Positions 27,888 through 47,657 of a stretch of 64,000 nt of DNA are shown in pieces (position 1 is the first letter of the stretch; each line of letters starts with the position of its first letter). The DNA comes from a virus (taxonomy: Duplodnaviria > Caudoviricetes), in the IMG/VR virus record IMGVR_UViG_2885358051_000002, positions 26,284-90,283 of that record. The stretch is one strand, 5' to 3'. The notes beneath the pieces are model-generated. The model was not told the DNA's origin. It did no database searches and worked only from the letters and a program-made list of their open reading frames with translations. Both the position numbers and the translations under genes were made by a program.

Positions 27888-28096
27888 TCAAAAAAAGTAT
27901 TCAAAAAAGACTACCGTCTTCGGAAAATGAGCCAAAGATATAATATCCGATGCTGCCAAATACTCATAACGAGTATTCAGCGTGCAAGCTACTCCACCGT
28001 CCGCAGTATTGACAGGAACAATTTGCCCCCCCGAACAAACTTCGGAGAAGCGGAGGACGTGATGAAAAGTTTTAGGCAAGACGAATTACATTTCAT
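27888..28096 (-). CDS. MTase variable-region-like mini-module M8; G7 tract (28026-28032) needs +1 to join the coupled ATG frame
   Basis: MKCNSS...FVRGG|QIVPVNTADGGVACTLNTRYEYLAASDIISLAHFPKTVVFFEYFF; paralogous to M2; a TTG start at 28079 is an in-frame alternative. Confidence 0.6.
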
Positions 28097-28261
28097 GTTC
28101 TACAACTATATAGTGCATATTTCTATAAAATACTCCAGCAAGAAGTGTAGATGCTACCCCCCCATAGAACGCATATTATACAAATCCAGGAACTCTGCAT
28201 GATGTGTCGGAGTCCAACCCTTCTGTATGAGTTGTGTCAAGTTCTTATTATTCGCAGCCAT
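28086..28261 (-). CDS. Mini-module M7; G7 tract (28157-28163) gives ATG GGG GGG TAG, +1 restores the ORF
   Basis: MAANNKNLTQ...LDLYNMRSMGG|VASTLLAGVFYRNMHYIVVEHEM; 176 bp. Confidence 0.6.
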
Positions 28262-28429
28262 AATCATCATACTCTACCAATAAACACATAGGACATCTAT
28301 AGTCCGATGTACGTAAACAAGGACAAACAGGCTTCCACATAGGATGGTCAATCCCCCCCCCCCATGTCGCCATTCAAAGAAATGCCCCCAAATGTGCGGA
28401 GCACATTTATAGCCAGATACTATCATCAT
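28248..28429 (-). CDS. Mini-module M6; G11 tract (28353-28363) needs +1
   Basis: MMIVSGYKCAPHIWGHFFEWRHGGG|IDHPMWKPVCPCLRTSDYRCPMCLLVEYDDYGCE; 182 bp. Confidence 0.6.
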
Positions 28430-28588
28430 ATTCAATCAATATACCGGCATCCTGCATGTTGGCGCGGATGGTACGAGACAAGTTCCACAACGGACCACGG
28501 TTGAAATCCGGTGTACATTGACAATATACCCCCCCATTCGATATGGTAACGGAGTAGATGCCATCATTAAAGCAAACGTTCTATCCAT
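28407..28588 (-). CDS. Mini-module M5; G7 tract (28529-28535) needs +1
   Basis: ...RMGG|VYCQCTPDFNRGPLWNLSRTIRANMQDAGILIEYDDSIWL; 182 bp. Confidence 0.55.
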
Positions 28589-28776
28589 AAAAGGTTATCT
28601 TTTTGAACTGATGTAATTGTATTTGTAAACTTCTCGGAGCCCAATTCAATAACCTGATGAAAACGACGATCAGCATGAGCGCCGCGAAACGAAAGGTTGT
28701 CGAGATCACGATTGACAGAAGTTGCAATACGAACACCTGCAGAAGATTCTTCGGGGTATCGGTCATAGATATACAT
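28567..28776 (-). CDS. Mini-module M4 (TRD-like NTITSVQKDNL motif); frame stays open upstream through CACRGR without a start
   Basis: EKFTNTITSVQKDNLLWIE; the coupled ATG at 28855 is out of frame and there is no long G tract. Confidence 0.6.
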   Translation of the reverse strand: MYIYDRYPEESSAGVRIATSVNRDLDNLSFRGAHADRRFHQVIELGSEKFTNTITSVQKDNLLWIERLL

Positions 28777-28841
28777 ATTATCTTTACATCTGCCACGACA
28801 CGCACAAATGCAGACATAAGTAATACGTGCCGTTGGGGATT

Positions 28842-29042
28842 TTAATTAGTATCATACTCAACAAGAATAAGATTATCCTTCAAGACAGAAGTTATCGTGT
28901 TGGAGTACGAAGACAGGGAAGGAAGCAACTGCCGGTCAGAAAATCGACAAAAGCCCCCCCTATCACCATGTATGCGTCGCAAAAGACGAGCGTGTTCCGT
29001 GCGAACCGGAATAAGGACAGAAAAACACCTAACACAATCCAT
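28842..29042 (-). CDS. Mini-module M3, in frame across its G7 tract (28954-28960)
   Basis: ...HGDRGGF...SNTITSVLKDNLILVEYDTN; start overlaps the MTase stop. Confidence 0.7.
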   Translation of the reverse strand: MDCVRCFSVLIPVRTEHARLLRRIHGDRGGFCRFSDRQLLPSLSSYSNTITSVLKDNLILVEYDTN

Positions 29043-30177
29043 GCTCCTTGCGAAATGCAGCTATCTCATCATCAGACAACTTATGATCCGTATAAACGTA
29101 GATGATGTGAGCAGATTTATCTGCCTCGTTTGTCTGAAGAAACTTGATGACACTATCCGGTTTAAGGAAATAAGATTCGTCCACCTCTTCATCCAGTACA
29201 TCAGCAATACATTTCAACAACTTGAAAGATTTTGGGAAACGATAAACAGGAAGACCGAGGTCACGACGGACGGACAACATGAAAACTCGCTCACGGTTTT
29301 GCGGAACTCCATAGTCCTTAGCGTTGAGTATAGCCCAATAGTTATCATATCCACAATCACTGCACACCTGCTGCCAGGCACGGAAATCATCAATGTTCAC
29401 CTCATTAACCAATGCACGCACATTCTCTTGAAGCAAGAACTTCGGGTGCAAAGCACGGATGGCTTCCTCTGTGTACCACAAAATAGAAGAACGAGTACCA
29501 GAGCCTTTCTTAAGGCCTGCACGCTTGCCAGCCTGACTGATACTCTGACAAGGTGTAGAATAAGTGAGCATGTCAATGTCATCCTCTCCCTGTTCCTTGA
29601 GATGCTTACAGAAAGAATGCCAATCAATCTTCGTCATATCGCCGAGATTGCGGTCTTTCCATTGCGGGAAGAGCAAATTATGCGCTACCACAGCCGGCTG
29701 CCGTTCGAGAGGGACATTCGCTTTTTCCGGGTCAAATTCAGACCATGCCATCAACTCATAAGAAACGGTGTGCCCACCCTGGTTCGCGGCATCCACTAAC
29801 TGCTGCATAGCAATAGCTTGCGAGTCATAACCGGAACAAAGCGTGACAAGCCTTATTTTGGATGGCAACGGAGCACGGAATGTAGGGTCAGGAAACAAAT
29901 TATAGGCATCATCGGGGTCATCCTCCGTCAGCCAAATGTTGCGAAAGATATAGTAAAGGCAAGAGACCACAATACTGTTTCCTGCCAACTTGTATATAGA
30001 CGAGCGGGAAAGAGAAGAATCCTCACACATAGTAATGATGTCAGGCTCTGGTACATCCATCAGACGCAGGCACTCACGTTCAGTAAGTTTGCGAATGTCA
30101 AAATACCGGACAGGATGAGATGGGTCACGCTTTCCCTGTAAGTCAGGATGATTATCCGGGTATATTTTTGCAATCAT
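29029..30177 (-). CDS. Circularly permuted C5-cytosine DNA methyltransferase core (motif order IX-X-I...VIII) lacking a TRD
   Basis: RKLTERECLRLMD (IX), IYKLAGNSIVV (X), LCSGYDSQ (I), STPCQSISQAG (IV), QENV (VI), PQNRERVF (VIII). Confidence 0.9.
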   Translation of the reverse strand: MIAKIYPDNHPDLQGKRDPSHPVRYFDIRKLTERECLRLMDVPEPDIITMCEDSSLSRSSIYKLAGNSIVVSCLYYIFRNIWLTEDDPDDAYNLFPDPTFRAPLPSKIRLVTLCSGYDSQAIAMQQLVDAANQGGHTVSYELMAWSEFDPEKANVPLERQPAVVAHNLLFPQWKDRNLGDMTKIDWHSFCKHLKEQGEDDIDMLTYSTPCQSISQAGKRAGLKKGSGTRSSILWYTEEAIRALHPKFLLQENVRALVNEVNIDDFRAWQQVCSDCGYDNYWAILNAKDYGVPQNRERVFMLSVRRDLGLPVYRFPKSFKLLKCIADVLDEEVDESYFLKPDSVIKFLQTNEADKSAHIIYVYTDHKLSDDEIAAFRKEHGLC

Positions 30178-30211
30178 TTTTTTATTCTTTTATATCAAAA
30201 ATCTATTCAAA

Positions 30212-30398
30212 TTATAACTCATATTCATAAAGGACAACAGTCATAGGATAATGAGCCATTGAAATGATATTGCCACTTCCTATGGCTTCATAACGGGTTG
30301 TAAGCGTAGCCGAACAACCATCCGCTGTGGTATTGCAAGGTGTGATTTTACCCCCCGAAGAAGCGTGTAGTTCCTATATAAGTAATACTAAAAATCAT
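30212..30398 (-). CDS. Mini-module M2; G6 tract (30351-30356) gives GGG GGG TAA, -1 restores the ORF
   Basis: MIFSITYIGTTRFFG|GKITPCNTTADGCSATLTTRYEAIGSGNIISMAHYPMTVVLYEYEL; 187 bp. Confidence 0.6.
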
Positions 30399-30565
30399 AT
30401 TCAATCATAACTGCGGTTGCAAAAAAACCATTTCCTTTTGCAAACAAAAAGTTATAGACTCCCATTTTATAGTAATTCGCTTTAATGGTACGTACATTTT
30501 TCCCCCCCCCCATCTGCATTAAGGACAAATAATCTCTTAATGTTACGGTATCTTGCCCAAATCAT
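30388..30565 (-). CDS. Mini-module M1; G10 tract (30502-30511) needs -1
   Basis: MIWARYRNIKRLFVLNADGGG|KNVRTIKANYYKMG...ATAVMIEYDF; 178 bp. Confidence 0.62.
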
Positions 30566-30816
30566 TGAGGTGTTATTTCTTCGATGGTCACAGTATATCC
30601 TTCACCCTCTTCCGTCCGCCATTCTTTGCACCGAGGCAAATCTATCAACGTGTCGCCACATTGCTCATTGAATGTTCCCCTGCAATCAGCAAGTTCTTTT
30701 TCAAAAGCCCTCATTACATCATCCAGAGAGATGAAAAGATTATGTCTATCCGAAACATTTTCATGTGTTTCAAGGAGTGTCGCAAGAAGATAAAATTTCT
30801 GTTTCATTGTATTCAA
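30562..30816 (-). CDS. Hypothetical protein embedded in the module array
   Basis: 84 aa acidic ORF, coupled to the flanking modules. Confidence 0.65.
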   Translation of the reverse strand: MNTMKQKFYLLATLLETHENVSDRHNLFISLDDVMRAFEKELADCRGTFNEQCGDTLIDLPRCKEWRTEEGEGYTVTIEEITPQ

Positions 30817-30939
30817 TTAAAATTTTCGGTTTATCCATGTCATGTCCTTTACCCCCCCAGCCAAGCATAGTGCGATGCCGATGGGAGAAACTACGATGCC
30901 GTTCTGCGAAGGAGAATAGTAACCAAGAATTACCGGCAT
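30770..30939 (-). CDS. Mini-module M0b; G7 tract (30852-30858) needs +1
   Basis: MPVILGYYSPSQNGIVVSPIGIALCLAGG|GKGHDMDKPKILIEYNE; both halves read as MTase variable-region-like sequence; 170 bp. Confidence 0.65.
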
Positions 30940-30941
30940 GT

Positions 30942-31298
30942 TCACAGGCGATTGGACTGGCTTGCGGACCATACGAGGTTTTTATAATGATTATTGGAGC
31001 GATTACCATCCTTGTGCAGCACATGCGGGAGATTATCATCGTTGCGGACAAAAGACATGGCCACCAAACGGTGAACCTTAAAGTTCTTTCCCTGAATGCG
31101 AACGCGCCGATACCCCTTTCCATTGAAAGAGGCAATAGGACGAAAGTCCTGAAAAAACCTTGCAGCATCCATGTCGTAATAGCACAACGGCGAAGAACAG
31201 CCTGCACTGACCGTTCGGGAGGAATAAACCTCCCCACTGTCAGAAATGAAATAAGAGGTCCGGCCAACCTCATAGAATTTTCTCACTCTACAATTCAT
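30942..31298 (-). CDS. HNH (NUMOD4/HNH_3-type) endonuclease
   Basis: GKGYRRV...KVHRLVAMSFV...VLHKDGNRSNNHYKNLVW. Confidence 0.88.
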   Translation of the reverse strand: MNCRVRKFYEVGRTSYFISDSGEVYSSRTVSAGCSSPLCYYDMDAARFFQDFRPIASFNGKGYRRVRIQGKNFKVHRLVAMSFVRNDDNLPHVLHKDGNRSNNHYKNLVWSASQSNRL

Positions 31299-31471
31299 GT
31301 TCTATCAATATGTATGGTGTAGTATTATACATGTCCGTATTCTTGTCCTTGCATATACCCCCCCCCGGAGAATGAGGTAATGGTGTTGCATATATGTTTG
31401 AAGTGATAACGCAACACCGTCCCCCGTTTTTCTCCGGAGCGAGTCCACCCTATGAAATGACAGTCATTCAT
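31288..31471 (-). CDS. Mini-module M0; G9 tract (31358-31366) needs -1
   Basis: MNDCHFIGWTRSGEKRG...ICNTITSFSGG|GICKDKNTDMYNTTPYILIEHEL; 184 bp. Confidence 0.62.
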
Positions 31472-32603
31472 CAATGCGCATGGGCATTATCAATTCTATC
31501 AGTGAAGAATTGGTAGCATCCTCACGAACAGTCACTGCACGTTCAGGAGCAGACAATTCGAGACGAACATTATCCGTAGAGACGACAGAAAGAACCGTCA
31601 GGAAGTGACTCGAACGAAGACCAATAGCAAATCCGTCAGGAAGCGTACAATCATCAGAAGACAGGTCTTCGCGGGCCTTGCGTGAAAAGTCCACATCCTC
31701 GGCACAGAGAGAAACAGCACCATCCTGTTTGCGTATAGACACAATCTGTGTGGCAGAATTAGACATAAGGGACACGCGCTTGAGTGCATTTACAAGGTCA
31801 CGCACCGGCATGACAAGATGGTAAGGCGACTGTGCAGGAATGACCGAGTTGTAGTTCGGATATTTTCCCACTACATCCGTCACATAAAGTGTGGTGTCAT
31901 CAGCCGAAATGATCAGTTTCTTACCATCATGCCGCAAAGACACCATTTCCACATTTGCGAAGGCGGCATCAATCGCAGGAACAGCCTTTTTATATAATAG
32001 GATAAGACACGGTTTACCATTTGTAACAAACGGAATCCCATTCGTATAAACATACTTATAAAGCATGTGCCCGGATGTGGCAACAAAAGTAACCCCCTCG
32101 TTTGACACATCAAGCGCCACGGCACTCAGTTGTGGGCGCAAATCATCATCGGCTGTACAGGCAGATGCGGCCTTGACCGAAGGCAGAAAGACCGACAGAG
32201 GCAAAGAAAACTCAACCGTGGTGTTCTCCTGCTCAACTGGCAGAGGAAAGTCTGCACCATTAAAAGCCGGAACAGAGAAGTCACCACCCTTGTAACGAAA
32301 CGAAGCAAGAAAAGAGGTGTCATCTATTATCATTTCTACAGGCTGCTCCGGAAGCGTAGCCAAAATGGGTGAAACCATTGCCACTGGGAGGCAGAAAGGG
32401 CGAAAAACACCATTGTCCATGCGACGCAAGTCTATCGGCATTGTCAGTGTATTTTCGGATGACGAACCCGTAATGAAAAACTTATCATCCTTGAAAGACA
32501 CCAGCGCATTGTCAAGCAAAGGGAGCGTGTTTCGCTTGAGGATGACCTTAGAAACCGTGCTCAGCGCACGTAAAAGTTCTTTGGAAGAAACAGAAAATTT
32601 CAT
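31464..32603 (-). CDS. dnaN: DNA polymerase III beta sliding clamp homolog
   Basis: MKFSVSSKELL, DDDLRPQLSAV, VATSGHML, GKYPNYNSVIP, C-terminal LIMPM; 379 aa. Confidence 0.93.
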   Translation of the reverse strand: MKFSVSSKELLRALSTVSKVILKRNTLPLLDNALVSFKDDKFFITGSSSENTLTMPIDLRRMDNGVFRPFCLPVAMVSPILATLPEQPVEMIIDDTSFLASFRYKGGDFSVPAFNGADFPLPVEQENTTVEFSLPLSVFLPSVKAASACTADDDLRPQLSAVALDVSNEGVTFVATSGHMLYKYVYTNGIPFVTNGKPCLILLYKKAVPAIDAAFANVEMVSLRHDGKKLIISADDTTLYVTDVVGKYPNYNSVIPAQSPYHLVMPVRDLVNALKRVSLMSNSATQIVSIRKQDGAVSLCAEDVDFSRKAREDLSSDDCTLPDGFAIGLRSSHFLTVLSVVSTDNVRLELSAPERAVTVREDATNSSLIELIMPMRIDE

Positions 32604-32628
32604 ATTTAACAGTTTTTATGTCTTATAC

Positions 32629-33231
32629 TTAGAATGGCAAATCTTCATCAGCCGGTGCCCACTGTCCGCTGTTGTCATCAATCGGGACTGCAGAAGAATA
32701 TCCCGTCACACCTTGTGCAACAGGTGCCGAAACATTCATGTGCGTATTCGCTTGGGTCTGTTCCTCGATAAGATAAGAGTCACCCATCTGGAACGGCATC
32801 ATCGTGGATATAGCCCGGGCGAGATCAGTGCCACTCGTGTCCGTCTGTTCTGCCCATTCCGGATGTTCTGCCTTGATACGCTTCTCCAAAGCCGCACGAA
32901 TCTTCGTGCGTTTCTCTTCCGGAAGCATGTAGCACACCTGATAGGCAGGAACATTATAAAGCGTCACCTGCTCACCCTTCCGCATCAATCCCTGCTTGAC
33001 CGCCTCGATGTAACGATTAGAGCATGAGCGTTGCTGCGTGTTGATAAAAGCACGGAAGCCAGAAGCATTGCGTTTTGTCTCATCACGATTGTCCGCACGC
33101 ACATCGATGCCATTGATGGCTGCGGGGATGAAGATTCCAGGAACAGGAGCCTGCCCCTCCCCACGCGGAAGATTTATAAACTGCGCCCCGATGAATATGC
33201 CGAGGTCTTGAGAATTTCTGTAACGTGCCAT
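32629..33231 (-). CDS. Probable single-stranded DNA-binding protein
   Basis: 200 aa in the replication module; flexible acidic tail ending DEDLPF. Confidence 0.55.
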   Translation of the reverse strand: MARYRNSQDLGIFIGAQFINLPRGEGQAPVPGIFIPAAINGIDVRADNRDETKRNASGFRAFINTQQRSCSNRYIEAVKQGLMRKGEQVTLYNVPAYQVCYMLPEEKRTKIRAALEKRIKAEHPEWAEQTDTSGTDLARAISTMMPFQMGDSYLIEEQTQANTHMNVSAPVAQGVTGYSSAVPIDDNSGQWAPADEDLPF

Positions 33232-33249
33232 AATTGCTTTATTTTTATA

Positions 33250-36200
33250 TTAAAACGGTAAATCTTCTTGTGACGGATCAACCGGGTTTCCCGGAGCTGG
33301 ATTCCCGGAAACAGGAGATGCGGGTGCCGAAATCAGCGCCCGTTTTCGCTGCCGTGAATCAAGGTAGTTGCGCCAGCGTTCCTGCTCCTCCAAAGATAGA
33401 GAGACCACGTTTCCCTCATCATCCACGATTGGTGTCGGGTCTGGCAGGGAGAGAAAATGCGTATAGACCTTCATCAGTTCATCGTTATTCTCAGGTATGC
33501 TATCCTTGCCCTGTCGATAGAAATACACTGCGTGCTCCGTGCGTTGCAGTTCGCGTATCTGCTTGGGATGAATGGTGGTATCATCCTCCCACTCACGTCC
33601 CACAAAGTAGCGTCGCGTACACCAGGCCTGGTGTGCAAAATAATTTGTCTCGACCGCTTTCTTGAGCGTCTTTCCATCCGCACGCTTGAAAAGTTGCGGA
33701 GGATTCATCAGGATGCCAGCCGTCTCGCAATAATCGAGCACGCGCCGTTTGAACGCCTTTGGAGAAAAGCTGTCCGTCTTATTTTTAGAGGCTTCTGCAA
33801 AATCAGACTTATATTCCTCAAGCATAGAGTCAAGGTCAATGGGGATGCCATAAACCTCCCGCTCGAAGAAGACACGCGCAAAGCGGAGGAAAGCCTCGCC
33901 GAGCGACTGAGTAAGTGTTCGTTGCTCCATATATTTTTTCTGTGCATCCACCTTCTCATCGTAGCGCATAACAAACTGTACCGAAAGCGCACAAATCATG
34001 GCTATCTGGTTACGTGAAGATGCGGACAACTTATCGGGCGAGACCGCATTAAAATCCGGCATAATGTCAGAAATATAACGGGCCGCCTTATTCTTCATAA
34101 TGTTCTGCCCGCAGAAACGATGAGAGAAGCCACCAAGACAGACACGACGCATGGTAGAGTCGTCAAGGTCGTGAAGCGGATAATTAGATGTGACCACATG
34201 ACCTGGACCTTCAGACAGCGGTATTGTGATGCGATCCTTGTACATATATCTCACGGAAAAATCACCTGTCGTGAGATTATATAATTTTCCGAAGTCAAGA
34301 GTTTGATCTACGTCCTCCCAATGCACGATACGATGCTTATGGTGCTGGTATTCGGCAAGGTTAGACGAAAACTCCTTATTGGAAATCAGGTCGCGACCAT
34401 TTACGTTCAAAATATGCGCCGCACAACCCGCGAAGATGCGCACGAAAGTAGATTTTCCAGAGCCACCCTCAGCGCGGTTGGCAGCAGTCACCACATTCTC
34501 TATCAGATAAGAAATGCAATTAGACTTAGAATCACGATAGCGCCACAACATACGGCCGAGACAGAAGACAAGATTGGCAAAGCGGCAATCCAGTTCCATC
34601 TGCTCCTCAGAAGAGAACTCACGACCATCATGCAGCAGTTCCTGCTCATGTTCCCATTCCTCATTGGCAAAGCCACGCAACACACGAAGCGTAGGCCACA
34701 ATTCAGCCTCCTTCTTTCCTTTCCAATCCACTATCCAACGATGAGACTGTGCCCATAGAGCAAGTTCATTTTCTTCCTGCGCCAGTTGTTGAAGCGTATA
34801 AAGCGGTTTGCCAAGATCGTCTTTCTGCGTGCGTTTCCGCTGAATATCGTCCTTACGCTTGCGGTAAGCAGGATTTTCTGAAATATCAAAAGGAAGGTTA
34901 CGGATAGGTGTCATGTTCCAGTGAAGCAATGCCGCACGATCCACATTGAAGTCGATGCTGTCATAAGTGCACATGGATATTTCTTTCTCCGTGATGCGCA
35001 ATGCCCCATTATCGTAGAAAAAGTGCTCCACATGTCGTCCATAACCATCTGTATAGTTCAGTTTTACAGCAGGAAGAGAAGCTATCGTCTTCTCGTTAAT
35101 CTCCTTATTCGCCCGGAGAACAGCCTGCACCATCTTCTCGTATTCGTCCGGGGTGGAACGTTCATCGTTCACCTGGCGAGCATACTCCTTGAGCTTCTCA
35201 ATCGTAGCCTGCACCATAGATGCAGCATCCAGTTCGTCGGCAAAAGGACCATCGATGTGGATATATCGTCCAATCTTATCCGGCTCATCAGTCCGCACAT
35301 CACGAGCATAACCCGCAGAAGCCATAAACTCCCATAAAGTAGCAGGATTGATGGTATAGAAAACCTCCTTAACAATGCCATTCCTGTCACGCTTCTCCTT
35401 GCGCTCGAACGGGTCAGAGCAAAGGGCCGAAGTGATGCAGGCAGAGAAAAGGCGGTTGATGTCATAATCGTACTGAGAACCCTCACGTGGCAACATACGA
35501 TAAGAAAGAAAAAAGTCGCGAACGGAAGACACCGGATTACAGTAGAGCCGAGGAAAAAACAAGTGCGCCCGGTCGGAGACTGTCCCAGGTAGTTCCGCCC
35601 GCATTATAGAGCGGTATCGGCAGCTTATGTCACGCGCATGGAGACGCTGCTTGTTAGACGATGGAAACAACGTATAAAGATTATCCGCAAAACGGTACAT
35701 TTTGTTGTAATGAACCGAAGAAAACGGCACATCTCCATAGGGGAAACAAACATGAAACCATCGAGATCCAAATTGTGAGGGATAAGTATGACGGAGCGCC
35801 TTCAAATGATAGTATGTGGCAATAGCATCAGGAGCAGTAGCACAGAAGATGATGTTACGCGCCTTGATGTCCTTCTCCTTGATTTTCTCTTCCTTTTGCT
35901 CAGCCTTGAGTGTCCCACGTTCATTCACATCCTCCATCCATATTGTACGAGAATGCTCATATACCTCAGACGCGTCCGTCTCCTGTATGGCATCAAATAC
36001 ACCTGTATTGTCCGATGTGCGCAATTCAACAGCCCGTTTGAACATCTTGTCACCAGCCAGCCAGCGAGAAACCTTAGAAGAAGAATGCTCGTCCGTATTA
36101 GAGAACACCATGGGAGTAAGGTGGTCGTTAGCCGGAAAAAAAACACATCCGCAGTCCTCGCGTTCGTCATCAGCCAGGCAGATAAAGATAGGCGACCACG

Positions 36201-36885
36201 GAGTAGAAACAAGCACCTCAGACCGAGGCGTGCCCTGACGAGACACCTGCGGCAACGTTACTTTCAGCACGGCATAGACATGGAAATCCTGTTGAATCAT
36301 AGATGGATGAAAATGCCATGAAGACTGTTTATTTGGAGACTCGAAGCCATAATGCTCAATGCCATTGTGGTCGAGCCATGTGGTACATCCGAGTGCCGCG
36401 AGGTCCTGTGGGGTGAAGTCCGTCTTAGGCTCAAAAGAAAGCACCGACTGCGGGCGCTGAGCCATAATACGGTAGTCACGCTGGAGAAGTTCAGGCCACT
36501 TCTCAGTTATCTCCTCCATGGTATGCCCGGCCCGGATTGCCAGTTCGAGACAGGCGCGACGCAAATCCTCCCCCACGCAGATGAACGTAGAAGGAGAAAC
36601 ATCATCCCTTTTCCACCAATAACCATAGCCATTGATAGCTGCAAACAGTTCTATTGCCCCGAATCCGGCACGAGAAGACCTGGTACACCGCCAATACTCC
36701 ACCGGCCTGCCATATAGTCCTCCCCTCCGCTGCTTGTAGATGATAAAATGCGGCGTGCCGTTCTGCATCTTACAGAACGGACACCAACAAGCCACCTGTC
36801 CCTCCTCCGTCTGTTGGTCTGAAGGATTGACAAGCAACGTAAGCGGGAGAGCCGCCAGTTCATCTATAAGAGGGTCGTAAATCAT
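33250..36885 (-). CDS. Large primase/helicase-type replication protein (N-terminal Zn finger, C-terminal P-loop NTPase)
   Basis: CWCPFCK...HF Zn-binding motif; EGGSGKSTF Walker A; WED and VTSN motifs; ends EDLPF. Confidence 0.78.
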   Translation of the reverse strand: MIYDPLIDELAALPLTLLVNPSDQQTEEGQVACWCPFCKMQNGTPHFIIYKQRRGGLYGRPVEYWRCTRSSRAGFGAIELFAAINGYGYWWKRDDVSPSTFICVGEDLRRACLELAIRAGHTMEEITEKWPELLQRDYRIMAQRPQSVLSFEPKTDFTPQDLAALGCTTWLDHNGIEHYGFESPNKQSSWHFHPSMIQQDFHVYAVLKVTLPQVSRQGTPRSEVLVSTPWSPIFICLADDEREDCGCVFFPANDHLTPMVFSNTDEHSSSKVSRWLAGDKMFKRAVELRTSDNTGVFDAIQETDASEVYEHSRTIWMEDVNERGTLKAEQKEEKIKEKDIKARNIIFCATAPDAIATYYHLKALRHTYPSQFGSRWFHVCFPYGDVPFSSVHYNKMYRFADNLYTLFPSSNKQRLHARDISCRYRSIMRAELPGTVSDRAHLFFPRLYCNPVSSVRDFFLSYRMLPREGSQYDYDINRLFSACITSALCSDPFERKEKRDRNGIVKEVFYTINPATLWEFMASAGYARDVRTDEPDKIGRYIHIDGPFADELDAASMVQATIEKLKEYARQVNDERSTPDEYEKMVQAVLRANKEINEKTIASLPAVKLNYTDGYGRHVEHFFYDNGALRITEKEISMCTYDSIDFNVDRAALLHWNMTPIRNLPFDISENPAYRKRKDDIQRKRTQKDDLGKPLYTLQQLAQEENELALWAQSHRWIVDWKGKKEAELWPTLRVLRGFANEEWEHEQELLHDGREFSSEEQMELDCRFANLVFCLGRMLWRYRDSKSNCISYLIENVVTAANRAEGGSGKSTFVRIFAGCAAHILNVNGRDLISNKEFSSNLAEYQHHKHRIVHWEDVDQTLDFGKLYNLTTGDFSVRYMYKDRITIPLSEGPGHVVTSNYPLHDLDDSTMRRVCLGGFSHRFCGQNIMKNKAARYISDIMPDFNAVSPDKLSASSRNQIAMICALSVQFVMRYDEKVDAQKKYMEQRTLTQSLGEAFLRFARVFFEREVYGIPIDLDSMLEEYKSDFAEASKNKTDSFSPKAFKRRVLDYCETAGILMNPPQLFKRADGKTLKKAVETNYFAHQAWCTRRYFVGREWEDDTTIHPKQIRELQRTEHAVYFYRQGKDSIPENNDELMKVYTHFLSLPDPTPIVDDEGNVVSLSLEEQERWRNYLDSRQRKRALISAPASPVSGNPAPGNPVDPSQEDLPF

Positions 36886-36895
36886 TTCATAAGGA

Positions 36896-37543: not shown

Positions 37544-37929
37544 TATATATTTAGGAATTTATTTATAGTGAACCAAGTCACCGTGCAAGGATGCAGCCTA
37601 TGCAGTGTGGCCTCAATCAGCAGCGTCATATCCTTAAGAGAGCAAAAATGATAGTTAGGCCGAATCATAGACACCGCTATGCGCCAGAAGCCTTTACCAT
37701 TCCTACGTATGCAGTCATGTTCTATAAGTACCTCTGCTCCAGCAGCAATCCCATAACCGCGACCCACCAAAAAGCGGAATGTGTCAATAACAAGTTGCTT
37801 GTATGCCCCACGAAAGACAAAGACCAACTCATCATCGTTATCCCCACGGTAGTCTATGGTGGCCGCAATGGAAAGGCAAATGCGACGGTCTTTCGGTGGA
37901 CGGCCTCTATGATACAGCTTTCTTTTCAT
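37543..37929 (-). CDS. Hypothetical protein
   Basis: Coupled ORF in operon. Confidence 0.6.
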   Translation of the reverse strand: MKRKLYHRGRPPKDRRICLSIAATIDYRGDNDDELVFVFRGAYKQLVIDTFRFLVGRGYGIAAGAEVLIEHDCIRRNGKGFWRIAVSMIRPNYHFCSLKDMTLLIEATLHRLHPCTVTWFTINKFLNI

Positions 37930-38417
37930 GCGTTCTCAATTTGCCCCCCCCGGTCAATACACGAGACTTCTCGCTCAAACTCCTCCATAATGGCATAGAT
38001 ACCTACACGCTCAAAGTCCTCCCAATCATCCATCGAAAAGCGTTTAAGCGACGTAGTTATACTCATGCCCAATTCAGAGATATAGGCATGGAAAATCTTT
38101 TTCAATCCATAAGAGCGACCGAGCAGCCGGTAAAACTCCCCATTGACCGCATCAATTCCAGCTATCACCTTCTCAATATCCTCCGGCTCATGCTCCGGAA
38201 AAAGCTCTTTCACGTGAGTGCGGATAAAGTCATGTTTGATTGCCGTAATGCCCATCAGTTCCCACCGGAAAAAACCCTTCTCGAAAAATCGGTCATAGGA
38301 AAAACCCTGTTTAGCCCCATGACGTGCCATGACTTCCCACAGAAAGACCTTCTGATTAGGAGTCAGATCATCGCAGTTCAGATGTGTACGTGGTTGTGAT
38401 AATTTGTCTGCTATCAT
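37926..38417 (-). CDS. Hypothetical protein, first gene of the leftward operon (possible Cro-like regulator)
   Basis: Divergent from the HTH repressor gene. Confidence 0.65.
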   Translation of the reverse strand: MIADKLSQPRTHLNCDDLTPNQKVFLWEVMARHGAKQGFSYDRFFEKGFFRWELMGITAIKHDFIRTHVKELFPEHEPEDIEKVIAGIDAVNGEFYRLLGRSYGLKKIFHAYISELGMSITTSLKRFSMDDWEDFERVGIYAIMEEFEREVSCIDRGGQIENA

Positions 38418-38451
38418 ATTGTAATCTGAGCGAGTTTTCGTAATTTTGCGG

Positions 38452-38498: not shown

Positions 38499-38609
38499 TC
38501 TATCAAAATTAACATCAAATCTTTGTTTTAGTCGGAAATAAACTTATTCTTAATAGAAATAACAAGGCAGAAATATAATGGTTCAAATCAATCCACGCAA
38601 CACGAATCA

Positions 38610-40198: not shown

Positions 40199-40331
40199 GA
40201 TGTAAGAGTTTTAATTTTGTCATTCAGGTACAAAATTAAAATAATTCATTTATTTGTGCAAGTAAATAGAAATTTATTTGTGATATTTTTTACTTATTAC
40301 TACCTTTGCATCATGTTTTTAATCAGTTTAT

Positions 40332-40655: not shown

Positions 40656-40666
40656 CACCAGATTAT

Positions 40667-41131: not shown

Positions 41132-41330
41132 TAAATACAGAGGGAATCAAAGGAAGAAAACACGGCGGAGTATTGGGAATCTGGAATGGAAAATGAACCC
41201 CAAGAAACACATAGCGATATATAACAGACTGTATCATGCCGCTGAATGGTTTGCACAAGCCATAAGCGAATGCACTGGGAAAGATATTGATCCGAAGACC
41301 ATCCTCCGGCAGTCCGGGTACAAAATATAA
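41118..41330 (+). CDS. Small hypothetical protein
   Basis: Coupled ORF. Confidence 0.6.
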   Translation: MKRYNKYRGNQRKKTRRSIGNLEWKMNPKKHIAIYNRLYHAAEWFAQAISECTGKDIDPKTILRQSGYKI

Positions 41331-41342
41331 CATCAGAAAGAA

Positions 41343-41531
41343 ATGAGTTACGACATCACCATGTGCCGCTGCGCTTGCAGCAAAGCAAAAAAGTGCCATA
41401 GATGGCAAATGTTCAGACGATACATAAAAGACAAAAATCCAAATAAGCCGAGATACATATCCATGCACACGGCTGCTAATGGTCAGATAGACGATAATTG
41501 TTCAATATACTGGGAAGAAAAGAAAAACTAA
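41343..41531 (+). CDS. Small Cys-containing hypothetical protein
   Basis: DITMCRCACSKAKKCHR...C pattern. Confidence 0.6.
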   Translation: MSYDITMCRCACSKAKKCHRWQMFRRYIKDKNPNKPRYISMHTAANGQIDDNCSIYWEEKKN

Positions 41532-41547
41532 ATGGCACAGAAAGATT

Positions 41548-42575
41548 ACCTGTTGGCGGAATTAATTTAGTGCATACTTAATTCTGCCAATGGGCTTGTC
41601 GTTAATGAAGTTTACGTATTGCAGAATGGTAAGTGCACTAATTTTGCCAATGATCCTGGCAAACAAACCATTCGTTATTTTCGCATAGTTCCTGATGACC
41701 AAGAACTGGTCTGTAAGTTGTGAGAATATTGTCTCAATCCTCTTTCTTGCCTTTGCAAACGGAATGAATGTCGGTTTCCAATCCTTTTGGTTGAGCCGAT
41801 ACGGACACTCCAGTCTTATGTGTGCGGTTTCGAACAAGTCAAGCTGTACGTCAGCTCCAATATACCCTTTGTCACCATAGATGCTACAGTCGTGATAAGT
41901 ATGTTTTACATCCTTCATATAATGGAGGTCCGCCACACTTGCCTTTGACAGATCATAGGAATGGATAACTCCACTTAACCCACAGAGAGCGTGTAACTTA
42001 TAACCAAAATAATACGTGTTCTGCGAAGCACAGAAGCCGAAGTCGGGAGCTTGCGAGAAATTGCCGGTACGTCCCATCTTGCAACGTTTTCCTCTTGCAA
42101 CCCTACAGACCTCTATCGGCTTGGAGTCAACAAAGAATTGTTCCTCTCCGCCATCCATTTCCATGGCAATCCGCTTGCGCAGTTCCTCACACAGGCCTGC
42201 CGTTTTCTTCCTGCGGTCATTGAACTGTCTCCTTGATATGAGATTAGGAATGTTGTCCTTGTACTCTTGCAATTTATAGTCGAACAACCACTTCTCACTA
42301 TCAATGCTCTCGGTCTCTGCCGTCAAGGATAGCGCCACCACTTCCAAATCCGAAAACTTGGGAACAGGACCACGACGTGGAACATTACCCGATTCATTGA
42401 CGAGATTTTCAGAGAATTGCTTGCATATCTCGAGTATTTTGACGAATTTTGTATAAAGGTTGTACATACGATGGTTTGGACTTAATGTTTTGAACACCAC
42501 TAGGTTACTAAAAATCAGCGATATGTGCAACTTTTTACTCATATTTATCAACTTAAATTAATTCCGCCAACGGGT
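41548..42575 (-). mobile_element. IS982-family insertion sequence (1028 bp)
   Basis: 22-bp inverted repeats ACC(T/C)GTTGGCGGAATTAATTTA at 41548-41569 and 42554-42575; 7-bp target duplication AAAGATT at 41541-41547 and 42576-42582. Confidence 0.95.
41562..42551 (-). CDS. IS982-family DDE transposase
   Basis: FVDSKPIEVC, YFGYKLH, YGDKGYIG, RKRIETIFSQL. Confidence 0.95.
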   Translation of the reverse strand: MINMSKKLHISLIFSNLVVFKTLSPNHRMYNLYTKFVKILEICKQFSENLVNESGNVPRRGPVPKFSDLEVVALSLTAETESIDSEKWLFDYKLQEYKDNIPNLISRRQFNDRRKKTAGLCEELRKRIAMEMDGGEEQFFVDSKPIEVCRVARGKRCKMGRTGNFSQAPDFGFCASQNTYYFGYKLHALCGLSGVIHSYDLSKASVADLHYMKDVKHTYHDCSIYGDKGYIGADVQLDLFETAHIRLECPYRLNQKDWKPTFIPFAKARKRIETIFSQLTDQFLVIRNYAKITNGLFARIIGKISALTILQYVNFINDKPIGRIKYALN

Positions 42576-42992
42576 AAAGATTATATAAAAATTCGCAGAG
42601 AAGATCTTGTTTTGGTGCAGCGAAAATATAAACTCTCACAAGAAGAGGTTGATCGAGTTCCCATAAACACAACGAAACAAGACATTGCTATCGAAATAGG
42701 TCAATATCTATTTGACCAAGGTTTACTTGCATTCGAGCAAAAAGGAATCGTTCTGACAGCCAGTTTATATGTGGCAAAAAATCCGATGGAAGAAACAAAT
42801 GACACAGAAAGAAATACAATTAAAAAAGGGGGACAACAATGAGAAAGAAAAAGATAACTATTATCATATCATACGATTATGATAACAAACATGTTGTGAG
42901 CAATGATAAGATTTCCTATCGGATTAAGAGCGACTTAATGAAAGGAACCGATCCAAGACATGAGCGTATAGAATCTATCACTGTAGAAGACA

Positions 42993-43328
42993 ATGAATCC
43001 GACTGAACAACAACCAAATGAATTTATTTCCATTAAGATAGACAATGGAAATGTGTCATTACACCGATACAATGACAGACCCGATGATATTATTCTCACA
43101 TCCCTATATGTCAGAAAAAAACGGAAACAAGGTAATGGCACAAAACTGTTGTTACGAGCAGAACAAATAGCTCGCGGTTTACATGCGAAACAAATTTTTC
43201 TACAGGCAAAAAAACACTCATGGCAAAAACAATGGTACAATCGGCGCAAATATGATGATTATGAAGACAATGGTAAATTTATATGGATGAAGAAAGTGTT
43301 GAATGACTCAACATCCGAGCAAGTGTAA
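42993..43328 (+). CDS. GNAT-fold acetyltransferase-like protein
   Basis: ILTSLYV...RKQGNGTKLLLRAEQIA...IFLQA...WYNR acetyl-CoA-binding pattern. Confidence 0.65.
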   Translation: MNPTEQQPNEFISIKIDNGNVSLHRYNDRPDDIILTSLYVRKKRKQGNGTKLLLRAEQIARGLHAKQIFLQAKKHSWQKQWYNRRKYDDYEDNGKFIWMKKVLNDSTSEQV

Positions 43329-43345
43329 CTTAACTGTATCCATAC

Positions 43346-43930
43346 ATGAAGAAGATAATGTTTAACAATAGATACGGGCTTACGCAAGCCGTATTAAACC
43401 TACTCAAAACAATGACAAGGAGAATAATCTCCGAAAAAGAGTGGGATAAAATACGCAAGTTCAAAGAAGAGTATTACGAACAAACCTTTGACAGATTAGA
43501 GGATAAAGAGTTGATTAAGACTTATTTTGATACCTATCCCGAACGTATGCCTTATCAAGTCGGTGAAGTCGTTGCCATCGCGCAAAAGTATTCTGAAATA
43601 GGGATAGAGCCTTTTCCATTCTGCGAAGCAGGATGGGATAACAAGATGTTTGTACGTGCCGACCTTATGCCCCATCACATCCGTATAACAGACATTAAGG
43701 TAGAGCGGTTGCAAGATATATCGGACGAGGATTGCATCAAGGAGGGGATAGAATGGGACCACAAAGCGCAAAGATTTTATGTGCGGTATGATAGAAAAAC
43801 ACATTCTCGTATGTGGTTTGCATCCACTCCTCGTGAAACCTATTCCGCGCTGATAGATTCCATATCCGGCAAGGGCACATGGAAGAGTAACCCTTGGGTG
43901 TTCACATACAAATTTGAATTAGAGAATTAG
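43346..43930 (+). CDS. Conserved phage protein (ASCH/PUA-like family)
   Basis: MKKIMFN...KTMTRR, ITDIKVERLQDISDEDCIKEGI, TWKSNPWV. Confidence 0.75.
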   Translation: MKKIMFNNRYGLTQAVLNLLKTMTRRIISEKEWDKIRKFKEEYYEQTFDRLEDKELIKTYFDTYPERMPYQVGEVVAIAQKYSEIGIEPFPFCEAGWDNKMFVRADLMPHHIRITDIKVERLQDISDEDCIKEGIEWDHKAQRFYVRYDRKTHSRMWFASTPRETYSALIDSISGKGTWKSNPWVFTYKFELEN

Positions 43931-44098
43931 CATGAAGCGGTACAGAATAGTACAAGGAAAAAGTTATAACGGCTGTATTCCAATAACGATATTTTGGGTA
44001 CAGGTCCGATGCGATAAGAGCTTTTCTACAGAGTATGTGAATGTGAAAGGTTTTGAATCATACAGGCGTGCCGAAGAATTGTTGAACTACTTGAATAA

Positions 44099-44296
44099 TT
44101 GATTATGACAAAAGCCAACTTAACCAACAAGAAGCAATATGAATGTATAGTGGAATGTTTAGATATTGATTTTTCAAATCTTACACCTAAAAAAAGGTAC
44201 ATACCGGGTAAACTATACGAGTTTCAGTACACTCCAGACAAAAGGTATTTCAAACGAGCATCAAAACAAAAGAAACATCCGAATAATGACAAGTGA
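44099..44296 (+). CDS. Small hypothetical protein
   Basis: ORF in operon. Confidence 0.5.
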   Translation: MIMTKANLTNKKQYECIVECLDIDFSNLTPKKRYIPGKLYEFQYTPDKRYFKRASKQKKHPNNDK

Positions 44297-44395
44297 TATA
44301 AACTTATTATATATACAAGGTTTAGAGCAAATGCACATGGGATAGTAACCCTTGGATGCTCGCATACGAGTTTGAACTGGTAAAATAATAAAGTT

Positions 44396-44815
44396 ATGAA
44401 GAATAAGGATTATGTAACCTTTGAGTTATCCCAGTTGCTGAAGAAAAACGGATTCAGAGAACCGTGCCTTAGCCATTAAACAGCAACAGGGACGGTTTGG
44501 AGGTGCAATGATGAAGAGGATTTTAACAGCGAAAGTGAACTGAAAGTCTATTCACGTCCGGCGATGTGGCAGGTGACAAAGTGGCTGAGAGAGGTTCATG
44601 GGCTACACATAAGCATATCCACTGTAATTGGTGGCAGATGGACTTATGAACTTCAAGACTTGTGGCAAAAATCGAATATAGACGGAGAGTATAACACTCG
44701 CATACCAGAAAGAGACGGCTATCCATGTATTGACACCTACGAAGCTGCACTACATGCTGGAATAGAATCAGCATTGGAACTGATTAACAACAACGGAAAT
44801 ACCATACTGCGATAA
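44396..44815 (+). pseudogene. Phage hypothetical gene with an internal in-frame TAA (44477-44479)
   Basis: MKNKDYVTFELSQLLKKNGFREPCLSH*TATG... continues in frame into WQVTKWLREVHGLHI. Confidence 0.7.
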
Positions 44816-44816
44816 A

Positions 44817-45413
44817 ATGGCAAAAAAAGATTGGAAGGGAGGGAAAGCCTCTGTATTCAAAACCATAGGAGCCAGTAACCACGTGGATCATGAAAGGGCT
44901 CATGCGGACTACTATGCCACAGAACCAAAGGCAACAGAATGGCTGTTGAAATTAGAAAAATTCGATGGGCCAATCCTTGAACCCGCCTGTGGAGAGGGAC
45001 ATATCTCCGATGTTTTAATCAGGGGGGGCCATTCTGTAACATCGAGAGACCTTATAGACCGAGGTTATGGAGAAGTGGCAGACTTCCTTTCCATCGACAA
45101 CCAGGAATGGAACGGAAACATTGTCACCAATCCACCATACGCCTACGCACAAGAGTTTGTGGAAAAAGCTCTCTCAATCGTACCAGACGGGAAAAAAGTG
45201 TGCATGTTTTTGAAACTGACATTCCTCGAAGGAAAAGGAAGAAAGCACTTATTCAGGACTCAGCCACCGAGCAGAGTATGGGTAAGCTGCTCGCGACTTC
45301 TATGCGCCATGAACGGAAAATTTGATGAGATAAGCGGAAGCGCCACAGCCTATGGATGGTTCGTATGGGAAAAAGGCTACAAAGGAGAGACCATTATCAA
45401 ATGGTTTAATTAG
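44817..45413 (+). CDS. Phage DNA adenine methyltransferase-like protein
   Basis: DYYATE, ILEPACGEGHIS, IVTNPPY, WFVWEKG. Confidence 0.88.
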   Translation: MAKKDWKGGKASVFKTIGASNHVDHERAHADYYATEPKATEWLLKLEKFDGPILEPACGEGHISDVLIRGGHSVTSRDLIDRGYGEVADFLSIDNQEWNGNIVTNPPYAYAQEFVEKALSIVPDGKKVCMFLKLTFLEGKGRKHLFRTQPPSRVWVSCSRLLCAMNGKFDEISGSATAYGWFVWEKGYKGETIIKWFN

Positions 45414-45423
45414 AAAACAATCC

Positions 45424-45680
45424 ATGACAGGAAAAGTACGACATTTCAAAGCGACAAGACCCTTACTCACTACTTCTGTCCGGGGGGGGGGCAAATGTGG
45501 CTATTGATACGCCAAGCCACAGAAAAAGGCTATATAGAATGTTGCGACAAAGGTGTTTTCGATATAGCCTACCCCAATTCCGAGTTGCGCAGAGCGAGGG
45601 TAAAGGATGATGGAAAGAGCGCATCCGCACTCATGGCTGGAGAACCTTCGCAATGCGTGTTTGTAGAATACGAAATATAA
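45424..45680 (+). CDS. Mini-module M9 (C5-MTase variable-region-like); G10 tract (45482-45491) needs +1, internal ATG at 45495
   Basis: IRQATEKGYIEC...VFDIAYPNSELRRARV...VFVEYEI resembles the phage Dcm variable-region segment; same hydrophobic-EY ending as the other modules. Confidence 0.65.
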
Positions 45681-45689
45681 CAAAAAACA

Positions 45690-46502
45690 ATGGAAATAGA
45701 ACCCAACCATATCTACCTTGGTGATTGCCTCGAAGTCATGGCAGGCATGAAAAATGGAAGCGTGGATGCCATCATCTGCGATCTGCCATACGAGGTACTG
45801 CACAAGAACAACCCACATGCCAAATGGGATAAAATGTTACCACTGGATAAACTGTGGGAACAATACGAACGTATCATCAAGGAAGATGGAGCCATTATCT
45901 TGTTCGGGCAAGGTATGTTTACTGCCAAACTTATGACGAGCAATCCGAAAATGTGGCGGTACAATCTGGTATGGGACAAAATGCGAAGTACTGGGTTTCT
46001 GAATGCCAACAGGATGCCATTGCGTTGCCATGAAGTGATAAGCGTGTTTTACAAACAGATGCCAGTATATCACCCCCAGATGATGATAGGCGACTGCAAC
46101 CATTCAAGAGGAAGACAAGAATGGGAACAGACGAACAACTGCTACGGGCAATACAAAACCGGCAGGACAGACGACTACGACAAGAAAATAAAAAAGGTAG
46201 TACCTACCAGACCGAATGAAAAATTCCCCACCAGCATTATCCGTATAGCAAAGGAACATGAGACCACCGTATTTCATCCGACACAGAAACCCATAGACCT
46301 GATAAGATACCTGATAAGGACCTATACAGACAAGGGAGATGTAGTATTAGACAATACGATGGGAAGTGGAACAACCTGCATAGGCTGCATCATGGAAAAC
46401 CGACGATATATCGGCATCGAAAAAGACATGAAGTATTTTGAAGTAGCGAAAAAGCGGATAGAAGCACAAAAGAGACAATATAAATTGGAATTAGATATAT
46501 GA
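45690..46502 (+). CDS. Site-specific DNA methyltransferase (N4-C/N6-A, beta class)
   Basis: IICDLPY, HPTQKP, VVLDNTMGSGTT, IGIE. Confidence 0.92.
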   Translation: MEIEPNHIYLGDCLEVMAGMKNGSVDAIICDLPYEVLHKNNPHAKWDKMLPLDKLWEQYERIIKEDGAIILFGQGMFTAKLMTSNPKMWRYNLVWDKMRSTGFLNANRMPLRCHEVISVFYKQMPVYHPQMMIGDCNHSRGRQEWEQTNNCYGQYKTGRTDDYDKKIKKVVPTRPNEKFPTSIIRIAKEHETTVFHPTQKPIDLIRYLIRTYTDKGDVVLDNTMGSGTTCIGCIMENRRYIGIEKDMKYFEVAKKRIEAQKRQYKLELDI

Positions 46503-47657
46503 AAACAAATATAACCTTGGAAGAAGCTATGGAACGTGCTACTGGTAGATTACGCAGGAAGATGGAATACTCCATTTCCTTGCTGCGTAAAGCGGAACGA
46601 ATTGCACAATCCTATGACAAAGAGAACGGTTTTTACCTCGCCTTCAGCGGAGGTAAAGACAGCCAGACACTCTTCCATATCACCGAACTGGCAGGTGTAA
46701 AATTCCAGGCACACATGAGCCTGACGAGCGTGGATCCACCAGATGTGATACGTTTCGTGAAGCGGAACTACCCAGAAGTAGAACTTATCGCCCCTAAAAA
46801 AAGCATCTATGCAGTAGCGGTAGAAAAACAGATACTGCCCACCATGAGAGTAAGATGGTGCTGTAACGAATACAAAGAGGGTGCCGGAGCAGGGAAAGTA
46901 ACACTCATCGGCATACGGCACGAGGAAAGTAGCCGCAGAAAAGCACGCAAGGAAGTGGAAATATCGAGCAAAAAGTTCAGCGGGACACTGGAAGGACTTG
47001 ATGTGTATAGGGCAAAACAGAAAAAGAAGACACATTCTAAAGAAACCAATATCACCAATGCCGAAGAAGAAAGTACAGCCGGCTGCATACACGGTAAGGA
47101 AAGTCTGCTCATCTCCCCTATCATCCATTGGACGGAAAGAGATGTGTGGGAGTTCCTGAATGATGTGATGCAGGTGGCACATTGCAACCTGTATGATGAG
47201 GGGTACAGAAGGATAGGTTGCATCGGGTGCCCAATGGCAAATCTAAAACAAAAACAAAGAGAAAACCAACGTTGGCCACACGTGAAGCGCAACTGGATAA
47301 AAGCCATTATAGCCATCCGAACCGGGGGGGGTATAAGAAAGAACTCTTATCAGAAAAACATTTGGAATCCATCTGGTACGGCATCGGGAAAGAATGGACA
47401 CCCATCAACAGCAGGAAAGAGCGATGCCGGCTACATCCTACACCCAGACCCATCCCATTGGGGGGGGAAAAAAAGCGAGAAAACAGAGGATTATGGAAGG
47501 GTTTTCCGAATGCTCGTCATCTGACGGCTTGACTGACGAGCAAGAGCGGAAAATAGCCGAAAATATCTACGACTGGTGGATAAGCGGGATGTCCTACAAA
47601 AAATGGTATGCAAAAAAGTTCCTACAATACCAATTTAATTTTTCAGAAAAAGAATAA
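46499..47657 (+). CDS. PAPS reductase family protein; C-terminus shifted at the G8A7 tract (47460-47474)
   Basis: AFSGGKDS, RWCCNEYKE, GIRHEES, LYDEGYRRIGCIGCP; as given it stops at 47524, and -1 at the tract joins the WWISG...QYQFNF tail. Confidence 0.8.

Follow-up and report, generated by a model that had tools for sequence, protein, structure and literature searches.

Phase-variable methyltransferases (phasevarions) are known in Neisseria, Haemophilus, Helicobacter, and Campylobacter; in these systems, a whole mod or hsdS gene on a bacterial chromosome is switched. Among phages, the Trautner laboratory reportedly described multispecific C5 cytosine methyltransferases in the Bacillus phages SPR, phi3T, rho11s, and SPbeta, in which target recognition domains (TRDs) stand in tandem between motifs VIII and IX. 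Here, we examine a 64,000-nt stretch of phage DNA (the whole of it referred to below as the window) that covers bases 26284 to 90283 of the 90,283-bp contig C204 (IMG/VR record IMGVR_UViG_2885358051_000002). In it, a C5 methyltransferase core without a TRD is flanked by small open reading frames (ORFs), the minigenes m1 to m10, most of which are broken at guanine homopolymers. We consider it likely that the G/C homopolymers are contingency loci at which DNA slippage switches TRD subunits that act in trans, along with other modification genes. The locus resembles phasevarions in having G/C tracts in coding regions, frame toggling by ±1 nt, tract lengths that vary between near-identical genomes, and DNA methylation as the target. 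It differs in that about ten separate predicted TRD minigenes of one C5 core, together with other modification enzymes, carry the tracts in a phage or phage-plasmid. Like the SPR and phi3T enzymes, it is phage encoded, combines one catalytic framework with several short TRDs, and would have an antirestriction role. Those enzymes hold their TRDs in one polypeptide and are not switchable, whereas here there are no tandem TRDs in one chain: each module is its own ORF with its own ATG, stop codon, and poly-G tract (m6 has no tract), and the core is permuted.

Homopolymer switches have also been described in phages. Poly-G tracts occur in receptor-binding genes of Campylobacter phages (Sorensen 2021, cited in PMC12823448), and T2 and T4 have poly-A contingency tracts in agt and rIIA, T2 agt being a DNA modification gene whose poly-A toggling to escape modification-dependent restriction was shown experimentally to be a form of bet-hedging (bioRxiv 10.1101/2025.10.21.683753). 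The present locus shares with these the use of hypermutable homopolymers in phage genes as a presumptive bet-hedge, but those cases concern single genes with one or two tracts, whereas here there are 16 to 18 tracts and a modular array conserved across hundreds of uncultured phages. The order of the core motifs recalls the natural permuted C5 methyltransferases of type H, M.BssHII, M.Alw26I, and M.Esp3I (PMC5944983), in which IX-X precedes I-VIII; relatives of the core such as protein P0033 have the exact type H order TRD-IX-X-I-VIII, while in the window IX-X-I-VIII is present and the TRD is detached. Finally, the two-subunit C5 methyltransferases M.AquI and M.EcoHK31I, along with fragment complementation experiments (PMC3404938), provide examples of natural enzymes that are split in or near the variable region and are active as heteromers, an arrangement that we propose here from sequence. 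In both the two-subunit and the type H enzymes, a single TRD is attached to one subunit, in contrast to the TRD-less core and the library of detached TRDs predicted here. Our search of the literature returned no library of detached, individually switched TRDs and no phage with homopolymer switches concentrated on DNA modification.

The motifs of the core, readable in its translation, run in the order IX-X-I-IV-VI-VIII, and the protein ends about 80 aa after motif VIII (coordinates of this and the other features are given in Table 1). The core carries the PF00145 motifs I, IV (PCQ), VI (ENV), VIII (QxRxR), IX, and X with an M.HhaI-type fold. There is no TRD between VIII and IX in the same polypeptide, and stop codons separate the core from all the modules. 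PF00145 relatives of the core amounted to 6630 matches, many of them ~380 aa long with the start MIAKIYPD; the closest relatives found were P0001 (98%) and P0004/P0005, and comparison with 300 genomes of the same family gave distant methyltransferases only. In an AlphaFold2 (AF2) model of P0033, a relative with a fused module, the predicted local distance difference test (pLDDT) score was mostly >85 in the core and averaged 81.5 over the whole model, and the top fold match of the model was M.HhaI (1.4e-14). Four module ORFs (m1 to m4) lie upstream of the core and six (m5 to m10) downstream, in an array that spans 27.9 to 31.5 kb on the minus strand. Each begins with an ATG inside the last codons of the preceding ORF and is made up of an N-part of 14 to 38 aa and a C-part ending in ...(V/I)EY(D/E); the Gly-Gly(-Gly) that joins the two parts is a coding-strand G run in 9 of the 10 array modules. 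The broken minigenes, nine in number, are 53 to 85 aa long. Eight of them flank the core, and the ninth, referred to here as the orphan module, lies 15 kb away in the modification operon, between two amino-methyltransferase genes.

The window holds 16 G/C runs of at least 7 nt, with lengths of 7 to 11, and two more runs of 6 nt. GGGGGGG was matched 37 times, compared with 4.1 ± 2.2 matches expected from dinucleotide shuffles, and 0 of 100 shuffles reached 37. The rest of the metagenome-assembled genome to which C204 belongs (225 contigs and 2.95 Mb in all) has far fewer such runs for its length: C204 has 16 of the assembly's 52, all within the window, and the other 2.86 Mb have 36, a density on C204 about 14-fold higher. 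Genes for DNA modification hold 14 of the 16 runs though they cover only ~15% of the window. Across 23 long genes in the window, Gly is encoded least often by GGG (14%), and GGGGGG spells 1 of 43 Gly-Gly dicodons, yet it spells all of the module tracts. Since the tracts are thus written against codon preference, the runs are under selection at the nucleotide level. As is expected of simple sequence repeat (SSR) contingency loci, the over-represented homopolymers lie inside coding regions. The 25 A/T runs of at least 7 nt break no gene, with the single exception of an A7 fused to a G8 (47468). A crude metric, whether an ORF spans the run, did not separate A/T from G/C runs and served solely to confirm that the A/T runs are at gene ends or in frame.

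These counts agree with an earlier note on this DNA, made from its letters alone, which had claimed that frameshifts concentrate at G/C homopolymers in modification-related genes. The eleven frame-breaking tracts that it listed (nine modules, the PAPS [3′-phosphoadenosine 5′-phosphosulfate] reductase gene, and the radical S-adenosylmethionine [SAM] gene at 8322) were recovered from the homology of both flanks to relatives, the frames of module N-parts and C-parts being set by homology to other phages. Five of the breaks need −1 (m1, m3, m4, the PAPS reductase tail, and the junction of the radical SAM gene with its C-terminal domain) and six need +1 (m2, m7, m8, m9, m10, and the orphan module), exactly as the note had counted, and breaks in two directions do argue against a one-directional base-calling bias. 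Its statements that the long genes are intact (the tape measure and the primase, the latter with its A8 run in frame) and that the G/C runs in the 7154 methyltransferase gene and the 37926 gene are in frame also hold. The other in-frame tracts are at 45022, 47324, 28954 (m5), and 59611.

A search of IMG/VR with an alignment of the core yielded 504 relatives, from which 80 loci (76 of them nonredundant) were kept. Coding-strand G runs of at least 7 nt were present in 45 of the 76 nonredundant loci, and 29 of the 76 had three or more. On the coding strand around the related cores, there were 228 G runs versus 22 C runs, and the G runs were 7 (58 runs), 8 (86 runs), 9 (64 runs), 10 (16 runs), and up to 17 nt long. 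Further arrays of this kind were found on JGI and ENA metagenome contigs. For 164 tracts, the frames on both sides could be set by homology: 58 (35%) were on, 42 (26%) needed −1, and 64 (39%) needed +1. G8 was mostly on and was the commonest in-frame length; G7 was mostly in need of +1 and G9 of −1. Because lengths are spread around the in-frame length, with about one-third of the tracts in frame, neither occasional base-calling errors nor a fixed programmed shift fits the census.

Comparisons of closely related loci revealed differences in tract length. Loci L101 and L102, which come from different sequencing projects, show 0 substitutions over ~2.4 kb and yet differ at 3 of 6 tracts; in one of them, a family-A module is on and the m5-like module is off, and the reverse is true in the other. 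Between L023 and L028, which are 96.7% identical, 7 of 14 indels fall in 13 tracts. Tract length thus shifts faster than the flanks, and the shifts move conserved ORFs between on and off states, both of which are features of SSR contingency loci. Several window modules that are off have orthologues that are on. The m2 orthologue in L014 and L101 has a G8 and is an intact 53-aa ORF, while that in L017 is off in the other direction; the m4 orthologue is an intact 62-aa ORF in L101 (G8) and is off in the otherwise identical L102 (G7); and the m8 orthologue in L017 has an in-frame G9. The m5 family, on in the window, has a G8 in L102, where it is on, and a G7 in L101, where it is off. The frame of the m10 N-part was set by an in-frame orthologue at position 4754 of L014. 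In the m1 orthologues of L014 and L017, the N-part and C-part are conserved in separate frames, and homologues of the tract-free m6 in L014 and L023 have a tract upstream.

The syntenic genome G301 (an IMG/VR genome of 106,650 bp, rated complete and ~70% identical at the nucleotide level) gave a similar picture. It has 15 G/C runs of at least 7 nt, of which the methyltransferase array and the orthologous modification operon hold six each. An N6/N4 methyltransferase gene, the N terminus of the PAPS reductase gene, and the phrog_9298 gene, the last by a G8 inserted at codon 31, are broken at tracts in G301, whereas their window orthologues are tract-free there and intact. The G301 orthologue of the 7154 methyltransferase gene is broken at a C7 in the same place as the window's in-frame C8, and the orphan module has an in-frame G9 in G301 versus the off G10 of the window. 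The 50-aa tail of the PAPS reductase, out of frame in the window, shares 72% identity with the tail of the G301 orthologue, which is in frame. Tracts come and go between lineages, always within modification genes. The earlier note had suggested contingency loci or recoding. The first of these is supported: dozens of independently assembled phages share the tracts, tract length varies between near-identical genomes, frame states are near one-third each, and a tract that is on in one phage may be off at the orthologous site of another. Recoding is neither needed nor favored.

The assignment of the minigenes as TRDs is clearest for the orphan module. A profile of its family (A3), run against 1.84 billion representatives, matched 629 protein clusters, which comprise both stand-alone proteins of 50 to 110 aa and internal segments of larger proteins. 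All 10 of the large matches tested were PF00145 methylases in which the segment falls between motifs VIII and IX, the gap running from profile position ~228 to 234. Because the family occupies this place in 10 of 10 canonical C5 methyltransferases tested, the orphan module is a TRD. Some distant A3 matches, of 545 to 672 aa, have long variable regions. P0142, a relative of the core with the canonical motif order, has module sequence at the TRD position, with a ...LIYVEE strand that leads into motif IX. The stand-alone homologues P0121 and P0125 share the N-part of the window module, which indicates that the two halves belong together. Modules are also found fused to the N terminus of the core, in P0033, P0009, P0063, and L017, which yields the type H order; the module in P0009 is of the m1 type, and that in P0033 is an intact equivalent of m9. 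Together, these observations suggest that the array minigenes m1 to m10 are TRDs as well.

We hypothesize the following mechanism. During replication of the phage or phage-plasmid DNA, slipped-strand mispairing would lengthen or shorten the homopolymers by a base; we infer that the slippage occurs at the DNA rather than the RNA level. When a tract is at its in-frame length, usually G8, the TRD peptide would be made and would dock between the C terminus of the core (after VIII) and its N terminus (before IX), giving an enzyme with the specificity of that TRD. Natural C5 methyltransferases made of two subunits, and the complementation between fragments split near the variable region, make assembly in trans plausible; from this we infer such an assembly here, and with it methylation, the specificities, and a selective benefit. 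About ten TRDs would switch independently, as would two further DNA methyltransferases, the PAPS-reductase-like enzyme, and the radical SAM enzyme. With independent switches, a phage population would carry many DNA modification patterns, and the benefit could be a bet-hedge across hosts whose restriction is blocked by methylation or requires it. In its fullest form, the proposal is that of a phage “phasome”: a TRD-less permuted C5 core programmed in trans by about ten poly-G-switched TRD peptides, with the N6/N4 methyltransferases, the PAPS-reductase-like enzyme, and the radical SAM enzyme switched separately, giving about a thousand epigenetic variants per genome. We regard this fuller version as a proposal that could hold or fail with about equal ease.

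Several points weigh against the switching model and its extension to trans assembly. In the consensus genome, 8 of the 9 tract-bearing array modules are off, so that few specificities would be made, a state that decay would fit too. Tract lengths are the consensus of short-read metagenome assemblies and may include some error, and the radical SAM break is weaker evidence than the other breaks. TRD homology at the sequence level holds for one module family; for the others, the assignment draws on position, fusions in relatives, and a TL-type motif. Pfam recognizes none of the modules, BLAST of the modules against 120 core homologues gave no matches, and profiles A3, A4, and A5 matched no solved structure. 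A possible similarity of m2 to the TRD loop of M.HhaI (SQ.G...TL.A.GGG) therefore serves only as a lead. In the single-chain AF2 model of the P0033 fusion, the module part has a pLDDT of just 30 to 43, which makes the model uninformative on docking.

An explanation based on recoding would treat the tracts as sites of programmed ribosomal frameshifting or RNA polymerase slippage, so that off-frame alleles are expressed and tract length matters little. Runs of 8 to 11 G could indeed let a polymerase or ribosome slip, the consensus sequences place about two-thirds of the tracts out of frame while both halves are still conserved, and, as the earlier note had pointed out, G GGG GGN has the form of a −1 slippery heptamer. 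However, orthologous tracts show both directions as well as in-frame states, so there is no fixed programmed shift, and a fixed −1 slippery-heptamer mechanism is rejected. DNA tract length varies between identical genomes, and lengths center on the in-frame G8, which is expected of switching and not of obligatory frameshifting. No conserved downstream stimulator was seen, although none was sought. We therefore think that recoding is an unlikely explanation; slippage by the ribosome or during transcription may contribute leak, but it is not what organizes the system.

A second possibility is that the minigenes are debris of a multi-TRD methyltransferase, or silent cassettes recombined next to the core at conserved GAR-TAT-GA junctions, and that the tracts are incidental. 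That most modules are off in this genome, that module ends share a short junction containing the next ATG, and that one module is fused to the core in some relatives would all be accounted for. Against this, N-parts and C-parts each keep a conserved open frame of their own among phages that share ~70% nucleotide identity, intact stand-alone homologues are abundant, and every module has its own start codon. Moreover, both the window phage and G301 retain the orphan module at a distance of 15 kb from the core, and the use of GGGGGG against codon preference shows selection for the tract itself. Simple pseudogene decay is rejected in view of the conserved halves and the abundant intact homologues, and we judge decay or silent cassettes in general to be very unlikely.

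The remaining possibility, that the reported lengths are homopolymer errors and the genes are really intact, is raised by the unrecorded sequencing platform of the 225-contig assembly and by the difficulty that long G runs pose for several platforms, but we find it scarcely credible, and platform error is rejected in view of the conservation of the tracts across many assemblies and the one-third frame distribution: A/T runs (apart from the A7 fused to G8) break nothing and long genes are intact, genes broken at a tract have intact orthologues where the tract is absent, and only 35% of the 164 tracts are in frame across independent assemblies, compared with ~100% if errors were occasional. The outcome under which the earlier note would have given up its claim, an error-prone platform, thus does not fit these data.

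Some features of the array and of related loci are recorded here as separate observations. An HNH_3/NUMOD4-like homing endonuclease ORF fills a module slot, with its own ATG embedded in the last codons of m1. The C-part of m2 lacks the usual stop codon after ...ILIEY and extends 10 codons into the start of the 84-aa ORF that follows. The core gene itself has a poly-C tract (C8 to C10) ~95 nt after its start in L021, L022, L023, L027, and L028 (~3095 to 3127); its length differs between L023 and L028, so the core may be switchable too in that subgroup. In the L014 group, the core has an invariant in-frame G7. At the extremes, L074 has a G17 at position 4942, and L069 packs 17 coding-strand G runs into the 3 kb that lie downstream of its core.

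Outside the array, the radical SAM ORF enters its C11 tract without a stop, and the second domain resumes right after the tract in another frame. Homology to the separate C-domain gene of G301 begins exactly at the C11, 13 codons ahead of the earliest possible start codon (GTG 8282). The radical SAM and partner domains, run together in the window, are separate genes in swapped order in G301 (60154 to 61930), and the tract at their junction is coding-strand poly-C in the window and poly-G in G301 (G7 in the C-domain gene). The G301 orthologue of the 37926 gene aligns just up to the tract, which may toggle a short C-terminal tail. The 795-aa protein with MutS domain I might affect repeat stability in a genome rich in slippage tracts.

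Table 1. Positions, strands, and homopolymer tracts of features in the window (tracts read on the coding strand)
Feature	Position	Strand	Tract	Frame state	Remarks
Radical SAM gene (PA0069-like) plus C-terminal domain	7689-9237	−	C11 8322-8332	Broken, needs −1	
DNA methyltransferase (phrog_954)	7154-7708	−	C8 7462-7469	In frame	
Tape measure	18329-24112				1927 aa, intact
TRD minigene m10 (predicted)	27888-28096	−	G7 28026-28032	Off, needs +1	N-part MKCNSSCLKLFITSSASPKFV
TRD minigene m9 (predicted)	28086-28270	−	G7 28157-28163	Off, needs +1	
TRD minigene m8 (predicted)	28248-28429	−	G11 28353-28363	Off, needs +1 or −2	
TRD minigene m7 (predicted)	28407-28588	−	G7 28529-28535	Off, needs +1	
TRD-like minigene m6 (predicted)	28567-28776	−	None	Constitutive	69 aa
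TRD minigene m5 (predicted)	28842-29042	−	G7 28954-28960	In frame (on)	66 aa
C5 cytosine methyltransferase core	29029-30177	−	None		382 aa; circularly permuted, motifs IX-X then I-VIII; no TRD
TRD minigene m4 (predicted)	30212-30398	−	G6 30351-30356	Off, needs −1 or +2	MIFSITYIGTTRFF-GG-KITPCNTTADGCSATLTTRY...VVLYEYEL
TRD minigene m3 (predicted)	30388-30565	−	G10 30502-30511	Off, needs −1	MIWARYRNIKRLFVLNAD-GGG-KNVRTIKANYYKMG...MIEYDF
84-aa ORF	30562-30816	−			Between m2 and m3; no family match
TRD minigene m2 (predicted)	30770-30972	−	G7 30852-30858	Off, needs +1	YYSPSQNGIVVSPIGIALCLA-GG-KGHDMDKPKILIEY
HNH (HNH_3/NUMOD4-like) endonuclease ORF	30942-31298	−			PF13392, 8.6e-06
TRD minigene m1 (predicted)	31288-31471	−	G9 31358-31366	Off, needs −1	N-part MNDCHFIGWTR...NTITSFS; C-part ...TTPYILIEHEL
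Primase	33250-36885		A8 at 36136	In frame	1211 aa, intact
163-aa gene, no assigned function	37926-38417	−	G8 37944-37951	In frame	Tract 15 nt before stop
DNA methyltransferase (phrog_799)	44817-45413	+	G7 45022-45028	In frame	
Orphan TRD minigene	45424-45680	+	G10 45482-45491	Off, needs +1	
PAPS-reductase-family gene	46499-47654	+	G8 47324-47331; G8A7 47460-47474	G8 in frame; G8A7 breaks tail, needs −1	
Radical-SAM-domain protein (phrog_9298)	47754-48770	+	None		Intact where the G301 orthologue is broken
LPD29/MutS-domain-I protein	59595-61982	−	G8 59611-59618	In frame	795 aa; tract 13 nt before stop

The phage genes of the window include, besides the tape measure and primase genes, one for a sliding clamp, whose protein had no relatives in viral_contigs. 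Positions 41731 to 42594 match MT837464.1, an unannotated “Bacteriophage sp.” fragment of human fecal origin, at 99.1% identity over 864 bp; this was the sole GenBank phage match in a megablast search with a 20-kb span.

Regions of this kind will be labeled as junk or pseudogenes by gene callers, and polishing pipelines may wrongly “repair” the tracts. The phage contingency loci shown so far each concern a single receptor-binding or modification gene. In the present phage, the modification machinery bears more than a dozen switches, and a C5 methyltransferase appears to be split into a constant core and recognition peptides that can be switched separately. Should these peptides act in trans, they would constitute a new specificity-subunit form of C5 methyltransferases, comparable to HsdS of type I systems, and would be a source of short, portable DNA recognition modules with natural on/off switches. 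The arrangement would also represent a new kind of viral counterdefense bet-hedging, by which gut and rumen phages would keep infecting across restriction-rich host strains.

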